Below, piece after piece: positions 3,000 to 27,021 of a DNA stretch of 64,000 bases (its first letter is position 1; the number at the start of each line of letters is the position of its first letter). The DNA comes from Candidatus Omnitrophota bacterium (GTDB lineage: Bacteria > Omnitrophota > Gorgyraeia > Gygaellales > Profunditerraquicolaceae). The DNA lies in the NCBI GenBank assembly GCA_041661605.1, contig JBAZUE010000001.1, positions 734,928 through 798,927 of the forward strand. The letters run 5' to 3'. A program made the translations under genes and the position numbers. The notes under the pieces are model-generated. The model made no database searches. It worked only from the letters and a program-made list of their open reading frames with translations, and was not told the DNA's origin.

Positions 3000-4145
3000 T
3001 TATCCGCACATGCGGACAGCTTCTTCCCTGGCCCAGGCATCGGCAGCCATTATGCCCGGCAGGTCCGGATTAACTATCTTTGTGTGCCGCCGCATCACCT
3101 TTTCCACAATTTTCGGTATAGACAAAAAACCAATACGCTTGTTTAGAAAATGGTTCACAGTAACTTCATTAGCCGCATTTAAAACCGCAGGCATAGTCCC
3201 TAAATCTTTAGCTGCCTGATAAGCAAGCCTGAGACAGGGAAATTTCTCCAGATCCGGTTTCTCAAAATGCAACTCTTTGAGATTATAAAAATCAATTCCC
3301 GGCAGTTTATTAACCAGCCTTCGCGGATAAGATAAAGCATACTGTATCGGTATACGCATATCCGCCGCTGAAAGCTGAGCCATAATTACCCCGTCGTTAA
3401 ACTCAACCATAGAATGGATCAAGGCTTCAGGATGAATCAATACCTTGATTTTTTCTGCTTCTAAACCAAATAAAAACATCGCCTCAAGCAGCTCTAACCC
3501 TTTATTCATCAAAGTTGCCGAATCAACCGTTATTTTCCTTCCCATCTTCCAACGGGGGTGCCGCAATACTTCCTTAAGGCTGACCCTCTTAAATTTACTA
3601 AGCGGCAGGTTTCTTAAAGGCCCGCCGGAAGCAGTCAGATATACCCTCCTGACATCAGGCTCCCGGAAACCTCCCAGGCCCTGCCAAATAGCTGATTGTT
3701 CACTATCAACCGGCAGGATCCTAACCTTGTATTTTTTTGCCAGCCGCATAACTAAGGGTCCGGCCATTACCAATGCTTCTTTGTTAGCCAAAGCAATATC
3801 TTTGCCATTCCTGATTGCGCTGAGCAACGGATTAAGCGCGGCAGAACCGGAGATGGCGAACATTACCAGTTCGATCTTGGCATCTTTAACCATCTCGGCC
3901 AAACCTTCTTCTGCGCAAAAAACCTTTACTGACGAACCTAAATCAACGCGTAATTTAGAGGCCGCTTCTTCATTTCTTACACACACAAATGACGGCTTAA
4001 ATTCTTTTATCTGTTGTTTTAGCTTAATAATATCCGAATTAACGCTTAAAGCCTCAACTTTAAATTGCTGCGGCAGGCTTCTAACCACAGAAAGCGTACT
4101 CTGGCCGATTGATCCGCTGGAACCTAAAACCGCTATTTTTTTCAC
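3000..4145 (-). CDS. dxr: 1-deoxy-D-xylulose 5-phosphate reductoisomerase
   Basis: MKKIAVLGSSGSIGQSTL NADPH-binding N-terminus, LANKEALV, HPRWKMGRKITVDSATLMNKGLE block. Sits in the conserved uppS-cdsA-dxr-rseP neighbourhood. Confidence 0.93.
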   Translation of the reverse strand: MKKIAVLGSSGSIGQSTLSVVRSLPQQFKVEALSVNSDIIKLKQQIKEFKPSFVCVRNEEAASKLRVDLGSSVKVFCAEEGLAEMVKDAKIELVMFAISGSAALNPLLSAIRNGKDIALANKEALVMAGPLVMRLAKKYKVRILPVDSEQSAIWQGLGGFREPDVRRVYLTASGGPLRNLPLSKFKRVSLKEVLRHPRWKMGRKITVDSATLMNKGLELLEAMFLFGLEAEKIKVLIHPEALIHSMVEFNDGVIMAQLSAADMRIPIQYALSYPRRLVNKLPGIDFYNLKELHFEKPDLEKFPCLRLAYQAAKDLGTMPAVLNAANEVTVNHFLNKRIGFLSIPKIVEKVMRRHTKIVNPDLPGIMAADAWAREEAVRMCG

Positions 4146-22697: not shown

Positions 22698-23711
22698 TTA
22701 TTTAATCCTCTCCAAAAGTTCCCGGGAGCTTGTTACCGCTGTTCCCAATTTGCCCACGACAATACCCGCGGCGAAATTAGCGATATGCGCTGCCTCAAGC
22801 TTTGAGGCGCCGGAGCAAAGCGCCAGGGTAAAACTGCTGATTACCGTATCCCCTGCCCCGGATACATCAAAAACTTCCTGCGCTTGCGTAGGGATATGCG
22901 TCATGCAGCCATTCCTTTCAAACAATTTCATCCCCTGCTCACCCAAAGTTACCAGAATAGAATCCAGGTTTAAATACTCCGTAATCTGCCGGGCCGCTGA
23001 ATCAACATCCTTATCAGTGAATAACCTGTCGGTATTAATCTTAAACCTGTTATTTGTATCTTTTATCTTAAGGTTCCTGATAGCATTCTCTAATTCCCTG
23101 CGGTTAGGAGTTATTGAAGTCACCCCGCGGTAATATTGAAAATTCTCTTCCTTAGGGTCTACGGTAATAATCTTTTTGCAGGCCTGGGCTAAAGAAACAA
23201 GCCGGCCAAGAAGCTCCACATTAATTACCCCTTTGCCGTAATCTTCAATAATAAGAGCGTCAAATGACCTGATGTTCTTTTCGACATATTTCAAGATCTT
23301 TAAATTCAACTCCTCCGGAAGGTCATGCGTATGTTCCCAATCCACCCTTACTACCTGCTGATGCCCGGCAAGGATGCGCGTCTTTACGGTAGTATGCCTT
23401 TTGTTTTCTTTAAAAATACCCCGTGTATTAATCTTTCTTTTTCTTAACTCCGCGAATAATATCCTGGAATTGGCGTCACCCCCTGTAACCCCCACCAAAG
23501 AAACCTCCGCGCCTAGAGAACGGATATTATTTGCAACATTGGCCGTACCCCCGGGGACAAAGGTGCGTTTATTTGCCCAAAGCACAGGAACCGGGGCTTC
23601 CGGAGAGATCCTCTCTACGCTGCCCCATATATACTCATCAAGAATCAGGTCGCCAATCACTAAAATCTTTGCTTTATTGAATTTTCGGATGATCTTGCTT
23701 AGATTCTTCAT
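22698..23711 (-). CDS. hldA: D-glycero-beta-D-manno-heptose-7-phosphate kinase (RfaE domain I only; no adenylyltransferase domain)
   Basis: pfkB-family sugar kinase. ILVIGDLILDEYIWGSVERISPEAPVPV is the RfaE/HldE domain I N-terminus, with DVSGAGDTV near the C-terminus. 337 aa, so kinase only. Confidence 0.8.
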   Translation of the reverse strand: MKNLSKIIRKFNKAKILVIGDLILDEYIWGSVERISPEAPVPVLWANKRTFVPGGTANVANNIRSLGAEVSLVGVTGGDANSRILFAELRKRKINTRGIFKENKRHTTVKTRILAGHQQVVRVDWEHTHDLPEELNLKILKYVEKNIRSFDALIIEDYGKGVINVELLGRLVSLAQACKKIITVDPKEENFQYYRGVTSITPNRRELENAIRNLKIKDTNNRFKINTDRLFTDKDVDSAARQITEYLNLDSILVTLGEQGMKLFERNGCMTHIPTQAQEVFDVSGAGDTVISSFTLALCSGASKLEAAHIANFAAGIVVGKLGTAVTSSRELLERIK

Positions 23712-24640
23712 ATCTTTTCAATTACCGCCTGTGCCAAAAGAGGCAGCATTATCTCATGATGGCCGATAATATAATAACCCCTGCCCCCTGAATTAGTAGG
23801 ACGGGCCACTACATTCTGCGCCGGCCGATAATGATAAATCATATCAAAATTGGCAGTGGTAAAATCCTTAACCTTATTCCCAAGGTTACGTGCCAGATTA
23901 AGCGCCTTTAAGAACACTTCGGGTAAAATAACCGCCGAACCAAAATTTAAAACCACTCCCCCCTGGTTTAACGCGCGGATATTCTCAACAAGAGTATGGA
24001 AATCACGTAATGAGCCTTCGGCGGTAAGCCCGGCGTCAAATGAAGGGTGCTGATGGATTATATCCGTACCGATTCCCACAAAAACACATACCGGCACATT
24101 GTATTTATAAGCGTTATAAAGCAGGCTCAAATTCTTATACGGCAAATTCTCATCGGAAATCATTTTTCCTACCGCTCTTCCCAAACCCAAGCCCTCGCTT
24201 ACCCCGTCTTTAACCGCCTGGTTAATAAAATCAGCGGTTTCTTTACCCATACCGAAGCTTCCGTTTTTAAGGTTTTCAGCAACATCTTCGGAGGTCTTTG
24301 CCTGGAAAGCAATCTCAAAATCATGGATGATCCCGGCGCCATTAAGGCAAATGCAGCTAATCACTTTTTGCTTGATCAACTCAATCAATACCGGATTAAG
24401 CCCGCACTTTATTACATGGGCGCCGGCCATAAAGATTACCGCTTTTTTCTTCTTCCTGGCTGCGGCAATATCCGAAGAAACTACGAGCAAATCTCTGGCC
24501 TTTAATATATCCGGCAGAGAGCTTAAGAACCCCCTAAAACTCTTGAGTTTAGCCGGAGCAAGCGCGAAATCCCCCTTATTTACCTTGCTAAAGCGGGTTT
24601 TAATCGAATATCTTTTTACCTTCGCTAAGTTAATCGTCAT
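23708..24640 (-). CDS. deoxyhypusine synthase-like (DHS-fold) family protein, function unknown
   Basis: By-eye alignment to DHS: [45 protein letters not shown] vs human [65 protein letters not shown] vs [21 protein letters not shown]; C-terminal [10 protein letters not shown] vs LVFPLLVAETF. ATGA overlap with hldA. Confidence 0.45.
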   Translation of the reverse strand: [310 protein letters not shown]

Positions 24641-24664
24641 TGGAATCCTTCGCTTTGCTCAGGA

Positions 24665-24700
24665 CATTAAGCTTTAATGTTTAACTCCAAAAGCTTAATG
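24665..24700 (-). promoter_or_regulatory. AT-rich 11-bp hairpin in the leader of the DHS-like/hldA/kds operon
   Basis: Minus strand CATTAAGCTTT (24700-24690), 14-nt loop, AAAGCTTAATG (24675-24665), perfect complementarity. Followed by TCCTGAGCAAAGCGAAGGATTCCA-ATG. Confidence 0.35.
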
Positions 24701-24735
24701 ATTTTATCACAATTCAACGCTAATTCAAACAGAAA

Positions 24736-24993
24736 TATTTCCCGCGCCTGTCTTGGTTTGTTCTTCGCAGGGACGCTTGTTGCGGCCCAGCGTGCCGCAA
24801 CTTCGCTCGGGTCGGCTGGCGTCGCTCTCACTAGTCCCAATTTAGCCGGTGATCCGTGCCCGCTCCTGGCCTCCACGCCCTGCTCAGAATCAAACCAAGC
24901 CATCCGCTAAGATTTCTGGCTTTTGCTTAAGGCACAATTAGAAAATTTTCGTGCCGTAGCAAAAGACGGAAAGCTTAGCGCACGCGGGCAATA
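24736..24993 (-). ncRNA. candidate structured RNA, family unresolved (strand inferred from context only)
   Basis: GC-rich island in an AT-leaning genome, stop-free on both strands. Five nested helices found by hand: 24983-24993/24736-24746, 24974-24980/24905-24911, 24958-24965/24920-24927 (+24951-24955/24931-24935), 24891-24899/24752-24760, 24794-24801/24779-24786. Confidence 0.5.
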
Positions 24994-25014
24994 CCTTGAA
25001 GAGCAAGACATCAA

Positions 25015-27021
25015 TTAGCCTTTGAGTATGGATTCGGCGGCGGAGAGCACATCCTCTACGCTGATTGCCTTAAGGCAGGCAAACTCTTTTTTGCAATTAT
25101 GCGCCAGGCATTGAATGCAACCTATATCTTTATGCAAGTATTTATCCTGCCTGCCTAACGGCCCCCAGCGCCGCGGGCTAAGCCCGGCTTGATTGCGCCC
25201 AAAGATAGAAATAACCGGAACCCCTAAGCTTGAGGCAATATGCACCGGCCCGGAATCATTAGAAATAAATAAAACGCACCTCTTAAGAATACTGGCCAGC
25301 TGGCTTACCGAAGTCTTGCCTGATAAATTTAACGCCTTATCCCCTATTTTTTCGGCAATCATATTCGCAAGAGGAATATCCTTAGGCCCTGACACAATCA
25401 GGATCTTAAGATTATGCCTGCCGGCTAATATTTCCGCAGCCTGTGCAAAGTTATCTTGCGGCCATATCTTCGAAGGACAACTTGCCCCAGGATTAATCGC
25501 CAGTAATTTATCCGCCTCCTTAATACCGTAGCTGGCAAATAAATCTTTGGTCCACTGCTCTGATTCCGGCCTTATAGGCATAAATAAATCCTGTGCGTTA
25601 CCACTTATGCCTAAGCTAGAAATCAAATCCAGGTTATATTCTGCTTCATGCATGCGGCCTTCTTGTTTTACATGCACTCTTGCAAGGTTATTCAGAAAAC
25701 CAAATTTTCGGTTATAGCCTAAACGCTTGGGGATACCGGCTAAAAAAACTAACAGGTGCATGCGGTTAGTCGGATGCAAAATTACCGCCAAATCAAATTT
25801 CTTGTTTCTTAACCTGCGGGCGAATTTAAGGCAGCGCAGCCAGCTCTTATGTTTAATATCTTTATCATAAATTATAACTTCATCCAAATATGGATTTCCT
25901 TCCACGATATCCCGGGCATAAGGAGCAACCACCATAGAAATATAAGCCTGGGGATATTTTTCCCTTAAGGCTTTAATCACAGGGGTAGACAACAACACAT
26001 CCCCTATGCGGTCAGTACGCACAACTAAAATGCGCCGGTACTCTACCCGGGCGGTTTCCTTTTCCTTATCTTTAAGTAAAAGATTTATCTGTCCAAACAC
26101 ATCATCAACCTTAATGCAGGATAGACATGCAAGGCTGCCAAAACGGCACTGGGCTTTTTCGCATGGACGGCAAAATATATCTTTTTTTATAATTATTTTC
26201 TCCTGCGACCACGGCCCGTATTTATTTTCATCCGTCGGGCCGAATATTGCGGCAACCGGAACATTCAGGTAACTAGCCAAATGCATAACCGCGCTGTCAT
26301 TAGTAATCAAAAGCCTGGCTTTTTTTAGCAAGGCGGCCAGCTGGCTGATCGAGGTTTTAGAGCAAAGATCGATAATCTTTTCCGGATGCGCCTGGCGGAC
26401 ATATGCGCATGCAGGCTCATCGGTTTTATCCCCCACCAAAATTACCTCCCAACCCTCCTTAATAAGCCGGTTGCAAAGCCGGCTAAAATTCTGCTTATCC
26501 CAACGCTTGATCTGGCTCCTTGCCCCGGGAGCCACCACTATCAATTTAGAGGTATCAGATATTTTTTTTTCATTTAAAATTCCTTCAATAAATTTCCTAT
26601 CTTCGGGGGAGATAACCAATGACTGCTGTTTCTTGCTCCTGAAGGGATAATCCGCAAAACCAGCCCAAAATAAATGCCTGTCCTTCATATGTTTGAATTT
26701 CCCGGGTATAAAACGCAGCGGCGAACTTCTTTTTTTAGCAGGCAGGAAAGCTCCGAAAAAACTGTTGCGCAAATCAACAACTATATCAAATTTCTCTTTG
26801 CTCAAAGAAAAAAACAATTTTATCTTATCGGTCAATTTGGCGTGCTTATCAAAGACAATTATTTTATCTACCGCGGGATTATTAACAAAAATCTCCTTAG
26901 GACGCTCAGGCACAAGGCAGCTGATCAAAGCCCCGGGATATTCATTGCGCAATGCGTCTAAAACCGGCAAGGTCAGGATACAGTCGCCGATATTGCTTAA
27001 GGTTATAAAAAGTATCTTCAT
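25015..27021 (-). CDS. tandem glycosyltransferase family 9 (heptosyltransferase-like) fusion protein
   Basis: 668 aa with two complete GT9 units. Unit 1 is MKILFITLSNIGDCILTLPVLDALR...NDSAVMHLA...CRPCEKAQCRFGSLACLSCIKVDDV. Unit 2 is RILVVRTDRIGDVLLSTPVIKALR...NDSGPVHIA...CIQCLAHNCKKEFACLKAISVEDV. Confidence 0.8.
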   Translation of the reverse strand: MKILFITLSNIGDCILTLPVLDALRNEYPGALISCLVPERPKEIFVNNPAVDKIIVFDKHAKLTDKIKLFFSLSKEKFDIVVDLRNSFFGAFLPAKKRSSPLRFIPGKFKHMKDRHLFWAGFADYPFRSKKQQSLVISPEDRKFIEGILNEKKISDTSKLIVVAPGARSQIKRWDKQNFSRLCNRLIKEGWEVILVGDKTDEPACAYVRQAHPEKIIDLCSKTSISQLAALLKKARLLITNDSAVMHLASYLNVPVAAIFGPTDENKYGPWSQEKIIIKKDIFCRPCEKAQCRFGSLACLSCIKVDDVFGQINLLLKDKEKETARVEYRRILVVRTDRIGDVLLSTPVIKALREKYPQAYISMVVAPYARDIVEGNPYLDEVIIYDKDIKHKSWLRCLKFARRLRNKKFDLAVILHPTNRMHLLVFLAGIPKRLGYNRKFGFLNNLARVHVKQEGRMHEAEYNLDLISSLGISGNAQDLFMPIRPESEQWTKDLFASYGIKEADKLLAINPGASCPSKIWPQDNFAQAAEILAGRHNLKILIVSGPKDIPLANMIAEKIGDKALNLSGKTSVSQLASILKRCVLFISNDSGPVHIASSLGVPVISIFGRNQAGLSPRRWGPLGRQDKYLHKDIGCIQCLAHNCKKEFACLKAISVEDVLSAAESILKG

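Follow-up and report, generated by a model that had tools for sequence, protein, structure and literature searches.

A widespread family of three-way-junction elements new to Rfam 15, with one member in a lipopolysaccharide gene cluster of a Candidatus Omnitrophota bacterium

Several described classes of intergenic sequence share features with the structured element that we report here, a 164-nt member of a new and widespread family located at positions 24744-24907 of the minus strand in a 64,000-nucleotide stretch of Candidatus Omnitrophota DNA (assembly GCA_041661605.1, contig JBAZUE010000001.1, positions 734,928 to 798,927; hereafter, the window). It lies between genes for lipopolysaccharide (LPS) core glycosyltransferases and an operon for heptose and 3-deoxy-D-manno-octulosonate (KDO) precursors. 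The repetitive extragenic palindromic sequences (REPs) and the related REPINs and bacterial interspersed mosaic elements (BIMEs), which are associated with RAYT proteins, resemble it in many respects: they are intergenic and lie near gene ends, their orientation is independent of their neighbours, several sequence types occur per genome, and they appear both as singletons and as inverted doublets, which our family shows at loci L031, L138 and L192 (the prefix L denotes a compared locus). They also share with it a fold maintained by compensatory changes, a patchy distribution among relatives and the lack of a transposase beside most copies. REPs differ in being simple, lineage-specific, GTAG-headed hairpins 20-40 nt long, whereas the element described here measures about 165-175 nt across the family, folds into a three-way junction, carries unpaired motifs that are conserved across phyla, and showed no near-identical copies.

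Orphan non-coding RNA classes such as raiA and HEARO are likewise defined by covariation and conserved nucleotides only, and the orphan candidates classed as mobile or repeat sequences resemble our family in being multi-copy, inconsistently oriented and without a consistent gene association, a combination that Narunsky et al. 2024 (PMC11109978) used as their criterion for such candidates. Unlike HEARO and the omega-RNAs, the present element has no accompanying nuclease or transposase gene, and it has no match in Rfam 15. The attC sites of integrons also preserve structure over stem sequence, with a variable terminal hairpin and strand-specific conserved mismatches; some copies of our element similarly flank ORFan cassettes, and its wobble pairs are few, as expected for folded DNA. 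However, our family lacks the R''/R' core sites of attC (RYYYAAC / GTTRRRY) and has UUAGCG...CGCUAA at its ends, its loops show strong conservation, and its copies are of mixed orientation instead of lying in co-oriented arrays; most of their neighbours are housekeeping genes, and we saw no integrase. Riboswitches, finally, resemble the element through its multi-helix junction, its conserved unpaired nucleotides and, in the window, the sugar-precursor operon downstream, and differ from it in that the family stands in no fixed place or direction with respect to a class of genes and lacks an expression platform.

The window copy is recognized by our covariance model, R1, with a score of 181.6 bits over all 184 model positions, and UUA at 24908-24910 lengthens its outer stem. 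Read along the minus strand, the outermost closing stem of the core, P1, pairs its 5' strand (24905-24907) with 24744-24746, and it is followed inward by P1b (5' strand 24886-24899 with 24752-24764). The junction is closed by P2 (24875-24883 with 24767-24776, spanning 24767-24883), whose last pair, 24875/24776, is a near-invariant U-G; a conserved A-GCG comes next, at 24774-24777. From the junction extends the long arm (24811-24874), composed of the basal helix P3' (about 24866-24874 with 24811-24821), a conserved internal loop in which GAGCGGGCACGG (24854-24865) faces GAGCGA (24822-24827), and the apical hairpin P3b (24828-24853), which varies in length and has covarying pairs. The junction strand CCGAGCGAA (24802-24810) connects the long arm to the P5 hairpin (24794-24801 with 24779-24786), whose loop is ACGCUGG (24787-24793). 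All motifs and helices of the family are located in the window copy, and the minimum free energy fold of the core in isolation matches the consensus structure, which at the family level has the ends UUAGCGG...GACGCUAA. Neither blastn nor covariance model R1 found a further copy within the 64-kb window.

The consensus structure derives from a comparison of 80 species-level Omnitrophota loci, gathered via the deoxyhypusine-synthase-like protein encoded beside the element, among which the GC-rich core was compared by blastn and nhmmer. We analyzed two alignments: A1, comprising 15 sequences aligned with MAFFT and collected independently of any motif pattern, and A2, comprising 93 sequences and including a metagenome set collected through the conserved motifs. 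In A1, RNAalifold predicted 43 pairs, of which 23 are compensatory. Refinement yielded a consensus of P1, P1b, P2, P3' with its internal loop, P3b and P5; with this structure, 89.7% of the cells in A1 are paired, compared with 31-47% when partners are slid, and none of 500 shuffles equalled the observed values. The corresponding values for A2 are 91.6% against 32-49% for the slid controls, with double changes in 39 of the 43 pairs and two pairs that are near-invariant U-G.

This support extends to the individual helices. Double changes affect 11 of 21 pairs in helix 2 of A1 and every one of the 12 P1b pairs in A2. In the larger alignment, P2 shows compensatory changes in seven of its nine pairs, with the terminal U-G kept in 85 of the 93 sequences, and P5 shows double changes in seven of eight pairs with 96.8% of cells paired, remaining nearly all Watson-Crick despite heavy covariation. 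The closing pair of P3' alternates between G-C and C-G in A1 with an 8:7 split, and the pairs of P3b covary in A2 (for example CG:46, UA:30, GC:16), while the loop of this hairpin ranges from 7 to 50 nt and the hairpin length in A1 from 5 to 19 bp.

Alongside the covarying stems, the family consensus contains unpaired motifs: GAGCGGGCAnGG and, facing it across the internal loop, GAGCGA; CGAGCG at the junction; CnCGCnGGG in the P5 loop; and A-GCG at the top of P2. Their invariance is already evident in the pattern-unbiased A1. Members with GC contents of 78, 73, 47 and 38% keep these loops and compensate their stems. We assign the element to the minus strand on the basis of loop asymmetry and of the two U-G pairs that are conserved. 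Outside these two pairs, wobble combinations are rare, with G·U in 94 of 3307 cells (2.8%) and A·C in 51 (1.5%). Such scarcity of G·U is unusual for a purely RNA-level constraint and may leave room for folded single-stranded DNA or for a constraint on both strands.

These results bear on an original prediction, made by eye from the sequence, of a five-helix RNA of about 258 nt at this site, whose observation we confirm and whose interpretation is partly supported. All five helices exist as inverted repeats (its P1 as I5, 91%; its P2 and P3 in I1; its P4 in I3; its P5 as I10, 8/8). Covariation in relatives proves two of them, the former P4, which is now part of P1b, and P5, which is retained unchanged. 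The proposed outer stem (24983-24993 with 24736-24746) pairs the two edges of the block formed by hairpin and core and finds no support beyond the closest relatives. The remaining two helices belong to a separate, truncated hairpin rather than to the proposed RNA. The five-helix architecture does not hold as a unit, since the conserved element comprises only 24744-24907. The prediction of a structured, RNA-like element at this site is supported, and no Rfam family covers it, as described below.

The separate hairpin, which we call hairpin H (24905-24980; inverted repeat I1, with arms 24905-24927 and 24958-24980), is a 76-nt deletion derivative of a longer hairpin, conserved and imperfect, that measures about 200 nt and is located 5' of the core in several Omnitrophota. 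The full-length form is present in L004 (3434-3618), L006 (3736-3917), L002 (431-621) and L018 (3671-3863), and also in L034; its consensus fold has 63 predicted pairs, six of them compensatory. The window version was shortened by an internal deletion between CGAAAAUYUUC repeats. The long hairpin also precedes the core at loci unrelated to the LPS cluster, namely L189 (1620-1753) and L085. In the window, hairpin H and the core's P1 share sequence, since the 3' end of the former (CUUAGCG) runs into the 5' strand of the latter, and the two pairings are therefore mutually exclusive. This intergenic region is a structured-repeat hot spot. A further hairpin, the third, is small and conserved, with UAGAUAAAGACUAUAAGGUG after it; it fills the otherwise "empty" gap of L008 and L012 (upstream of position 4001), and in L004 (3640-3700) it is nested in the internal loop of the element's P1.

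To determine how widely the family occurs, an exact-pattern scan for the conserved loops was performed, and it returned matches in at least 120 metagenome contigs. Model R1 confirmed about 105 of the pattern-matched contigs, with GC contents from 38% to 78%, and it found copies at the orthologous gap in 17 of the 80 Omnitrophota loci. The neighbouring proteins label the host lineages as Omnitrophota, a Patescibacteria-labelled metagenome-assembled genome (MAG), an "Actinobacteria"-labelled MAG and an Aminicenantes/Acidobacteriota-like lineage; such labels are few, and those of MAGs are only as reliable as the binning. A search of the whole window against the 4227 covariance models of Rfam 15 at gathering thresholds gave no match. 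With a relaxed threshold (E<=10) over 24400-25250, only spurious microRNA and small nucleolar RNA matches on the AT-rich hairpin H appeared, and for 15 diverse members searched at E<=1 the element itself drew no match. ARAGORN predicted no tRNA or transfer-messenger RNA (tmRNA) gene in the window, and no description emerged when the literature was searched for this motif or for Omnitrophota structured RNAs. The family is new to Rfam 15, and we found no published description of it. A phage or plasmid origin was considered and rejected: blastn against phage and plasmid collections found no similar DNA, and nine viral pattern matches were chance occurrences within GC-rich coding sequence.

The element is independent of its neighbouring genes. 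At 89 loci elsewhere, the closest gene on the upstream side points the same way as the element in 41 cases and the opposite way in 43; for the closest gene on the downstream side, these counts are 39 and 41. The neighbouring genes are housekeeping genes of ordinary kinds, the upstream co-oriented ones including MurJ, Tgt, EtfA, NRAMP and XerC-type genes, and no recurrent partner protein emerged from the 556 open reading frames (ORFs) within 7 kb at these 89 loci, the largest cluster covering five loci. At the orthologous gap itself, the element is absent from 63 of the 80 species, which keep the operon, and nine copies are reversed. Across 92 copies, no -10/-35 signal recurs at a set distance, and no terminator was found after the window element. 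Linkage to tRNA genes was also considered and set aside: a tRNA gene lies within 120 nt in two of 60 loci, in both co-oriented and about 100 nt downstream, a frequency compatible with chance.

The operon that follows the element has control sequences of its own. A promoter scan identified a sigma-70-like promoter for the deoxyhypusine-synthase-like/heptose/KDO operon at 24701-24728 (minus strand; TTGAAT, 16-nt spacer, TG-extended TAAAAT), which sits 3' of the structured element. It is followed by a conserved 5' untranslated region (UTR; 24646-24700, minus strand) that contains a 5'-terminal mRNA hairpin (24665-24700; inverted repeat I4) and a small hairpin (24646-24664) in which UCCU pairs with the Shine-Dalgarno AGGA and the loop reads GAGCRAAGCGA. 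Nine species conserve the promoter and both leader hairpins, with or without the element, and one pair is compensatory (UA to CG in three sequences). The region 24646-24728 may be the real cis-regulatory leader of the operon. At L020 (about 3930-3990), inspection by eye suggests that a sigma-54-like promoter (TGGCAC, 5-nt spacer, GTGC) replaces the sigma-70-like one. We also considered whether the element could act as a sponge through GAGCGAAG, common to the element and the operon 5' UTR, and rejected this function, as the window shows no enrichment of the motif and its own UTR reads GAGCAAAG.

The family is multi-copy and patchily distributed. Several contigs carry two or three divergent copies within a few kilobases, with compensated stems and mostly head-to-head arrangement; adjacent pairs lie 13-160 nt apart at the three loci with inverted doublets, and copies surround one or two ORFans at L040, L145 and L114. 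At L114 (676-4939), three divergent copies within 4.3 kb separate ORFan pairs just upstream of tgt; these ORFans include a DUF5677 protein and one resembling the PADLOC defence candidate PDC-S31, and the region resembles a small, element-punctuated variable island. Two genomes, L040 and L031, have both copies head-to-head at the orthologous gap, while deletion derivatives occur in L006 and L016 and a nested insertion in L004. In the Aminicenantes-like lineage, two relatives carry the element, and in a third, with 97% identity in the neighbouring PhoU, the site is occupied by unrelated sequence. Comparison of L215/L216 (6210-6568) with L087 (7630-7990) and L217 (6270-6660) shows this element site, with a replacement of similar length in one relative. 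No element sequence beyond the core unit is shared among the copies elsewhere. A transposon with structured ends and cargo was rejected, since homologues of the L040 cargo ORF occur in defence-island-like contexts (Eco57I, PIN and HNH genes) with no element nearby; because the cargo homologues occur without it, the element is not part of that cargo's own mobile unit.

We tentatively favour the reading that the family consists of interspersed structured repeats that a trans-acting factor recognizes in folded, single-stranded form. A trans-encoded factor would recognize the folded strand through the GAGCG-type conserved loops and the two conserved U·G (T·G) pairs, and the element would be gained, lost, duplicated head-to-head and eventually decay in a manner similar to REPs and REPINs. 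On this proposal, transcription of the glycosyltransferase genes upstream would simply read through the window copy, and the operon downstream has a promoter and leader of its own. The recognizing factor, the chemistry of the active strand and any mobility are parts of the proposal that we infer, and a number of results weigh against it. Direct repeats in the flanks average 4.9 nt, compared with 4.7 nt for shuffled flank pairs, and thus give no sign of target-site duplication; no terminal inverted repeats extend beyond the P1 stem (UUUAGCG/CGCUAAA); and no transposase lies within 7 kb of the copies at the 89 loci, nor does a recombinase family recur there. Near-identical copies at different loci were not found, the maximum being 89% identity with unrelated flanks, and recent mobility is therefore not supported. 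The copies sharing a contig are old paralogues that still keep their fold, and the unpaired nucleotides are conserved across phyla; both traits suit a cellular RNA, for example a ribonucleoprotein (RNP) scaffold or a ribozyme, better than REPs or miniature inverted-repeat transposable elements (MITEs). The motif invariance in the metagenome set of A2 was partly imposed by the way in which that set was collected. In addition, the median spacer is longer on the 5' side of the element (119-129 nt) than on the 3' side (27-66 nt), and at L189 a good sigma-70-like promoter (TTGAAA, 17-nt spacer, TAAAAT) lies upstream of hairpin and core on the sense strand; the two observations fit an RNA gene with its own transcription. 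Many of these points favour a family of trans-acting cellular small RNAs, with several paralogues per genome and either their own promoters or processing from longer transcripts, which would serve as an RNP scaffold or as a protein sponge through repeated GAGCG loops. This is the main rival reading, possible although held with some doubt. The high conservation of junction and loop nucleotides, the extensive cross-phylum covariation, the greater room on the 5' side, the L189 promoter, the diverged paralogues that keep their fold and the two loci with co-oriented tRNA genes downstream would all fit it, as would the retention of the element at the same gap where the flanking protein is only 77% identical. 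Against it stand the lack of a fixed-distance promoter across 92 copies and of a terminator, head-to-head pairs whose 5' ends are as little as 13-27 nt apart, too tight for promoters, the patchy presence and decay of the element in close relatives, and the scarcity of G·U pairs.

The other explanations carry much less probability. A new self-cleaving or otherwise catalytic RNA, scattered like the hammerhead and twister ribozymes, would account for the concentration of invariant nucleotides in the three-way junction and internal loop, for scattered, multi-copy and orientation-independent copies that sometimes lie beside ORFan or defence-like genes, and for the absence of the family from Rfam; we nevertheless judge it improbable, as the element exceeds known small self-cleaving RNAs in size, it allows no cleavage site to be inferred, and the wobble-pair scarcity is atypical for RNA. 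An inverton, in which a segment between short inverted repeats at the gap edges flips and alters expression of the LPS operon, appears more improbable still. It was suggested by hairpin and core being oppositely oriented in L002 and L003, each of which has a flanking protein 97% identical to that of the window, by an L003 core that is 87% identical to the L181 core and inverted at the same locus, and by short AAATATTT-type repeats at the borders. The inverted copies, however, belong to different sequence types (L002 resembles L009), no promoter was found within the segment, and the family is mostly single-copy elsewhere. Active inversion at the LPS gap is less likely for the same reason, that the oppositely oriented copies represent different sequence types, and the two arrangements are best explained by an ancestral head-to-head pair around the long hairpin or a cargo, still kept with both copies in L040 and L031, followed by differential loss of single copies. 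As for the riboswitch-like role that the original prediction had allowed, that of a cis-regulatory leader of the deoxyhypusine-synthase-like/heptose/KDO operon, the complex conserved fold and the window element's position upstream of the operon and in its orientation gave it some appeal, yet it retains scarcely any probability. It is excluded by the mixed orientation, the unrelated neighbours and the patchy presence at a single locus: nine copies are reversed there, 63 of the 80 species have the operon without the element, the downstream gene elsewhere is opposed in 41 of 80 cases and functionally unrelated, and the operon's promoter and Shine-Dalgarno-sequestering leader lie downstream of the element. 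The element is not a regulator of the LPS genes, and the tempting annotation as a control element of an LPS sugar-precursor operon is corrected accordingly.

Two further candidates were rejected. A MITE or an insertion sequence (IS)-type element is at odds with the lack of target-site duplication, transposase and near-identical copies, and with ends at which only P1 is inverted. The omega-RNAs of TnpB/IscB and the bridge RNAs of IS110 are contradicted by the lack of a recurrent nuclease or recombinase gene among the 556 ORFs of the 89 loci.

Beyond the preferred reading of interspersed repeats recognized in folded form, a wider proposal is that the family belongs to an undescribed system of uncultivated, often ultra-small bacteria (Omnitrophota, Aminicenantes-like and Patescibacteria-labelled genomes). 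It would be either a new class of catalytic or protein-recruiting RNA, or a folded single-strand site of recombination or mobility without a cis-encoded enzyme, marking the insertion of accessory or defence ORFans between housekeeping genes. We consider this unlikely. Whatever its role, the family itself, if it holds up, would be a large and very well-supported addition, with 43 base pairs that nearly all covary and loops invariant between 38 and 78% GC, to the few RNA-like folds that are widespread in bacteria and lack an assigned function, in host phyla that are almost missing from curated RNA catalogues. The calibrated model and more than 90 examples make the copy number per genome, the phyletic partners and the expression of the element testable.

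The gap that contains the element comprises 374 nt (24641-25014) between two minus-strand ORFs, in agreement with the original prediction of a 374-bp non-coding interval between glycosyltransferase and heptose/KDO genes, and it is the longest truly non-coding stretch of the window. The description of it as the only long gap was essentially right, since the other gaps longer than 200 nt contain plausible small genes, for example those for a 90-aa membrane protein and a SpoVG-like protein. The contrast in composition noted by that prediction is also real, with 62% GC in the core (100-nt windows, 24750-24899) against 44% over the whole window, and the gap folds more stably than shuffled versions of it, with z = -3.6 for the minus strand and z = -5.6 for the plus strand. 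Its two overlapping stop-free ORFs of about 77 aa do exist, one of 78 aa on the minus strand (24667-24903) and one of 77 aa on the plus strand (24677-24910). They are a non-coding by-product, because the core sequence is GC-rich and folded. A Pfam search of the gap ORFs gave no match, and among 14 homologues examined for a conserved reading frame most indels are not multiples of three and most sequences contain stops or lack a start codon. A decayed or small protein gene is ruled out by the unconserved ORFs and the absence of a Pfam match.

The gene upstream of the gap (25015-27021, minus strand) encodes a protein of 668 aa with two GT9 heptosyltransferase domains (Pfam PF01075, E = 3.5e-76). 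The downstream gene (23708-24640, minus strand) encodes a protein of 310 aa from the deoxyhypusine-synthase family (Pfam PF01916) and heads the operon with the PfkB and KdsB-like (cytidylyltransferase) genes. Omnitrophota homologues of this protein are 70-97% identical to it, and the affiliation of the window to Candidatus Omnitrophota also follows from it. Its match to PF01916 is weak and covers only residues 48-117. The deoxyhypusine-synthase-like gene is always the first in an operon with genes for a PfkB-type kinase and a KDO cytidylyltransferase, adjoining heptosyltransferase genes, and this pairing of a deoxyhypusine-synthase fold with an LPS sugar operon is an unexplained association.

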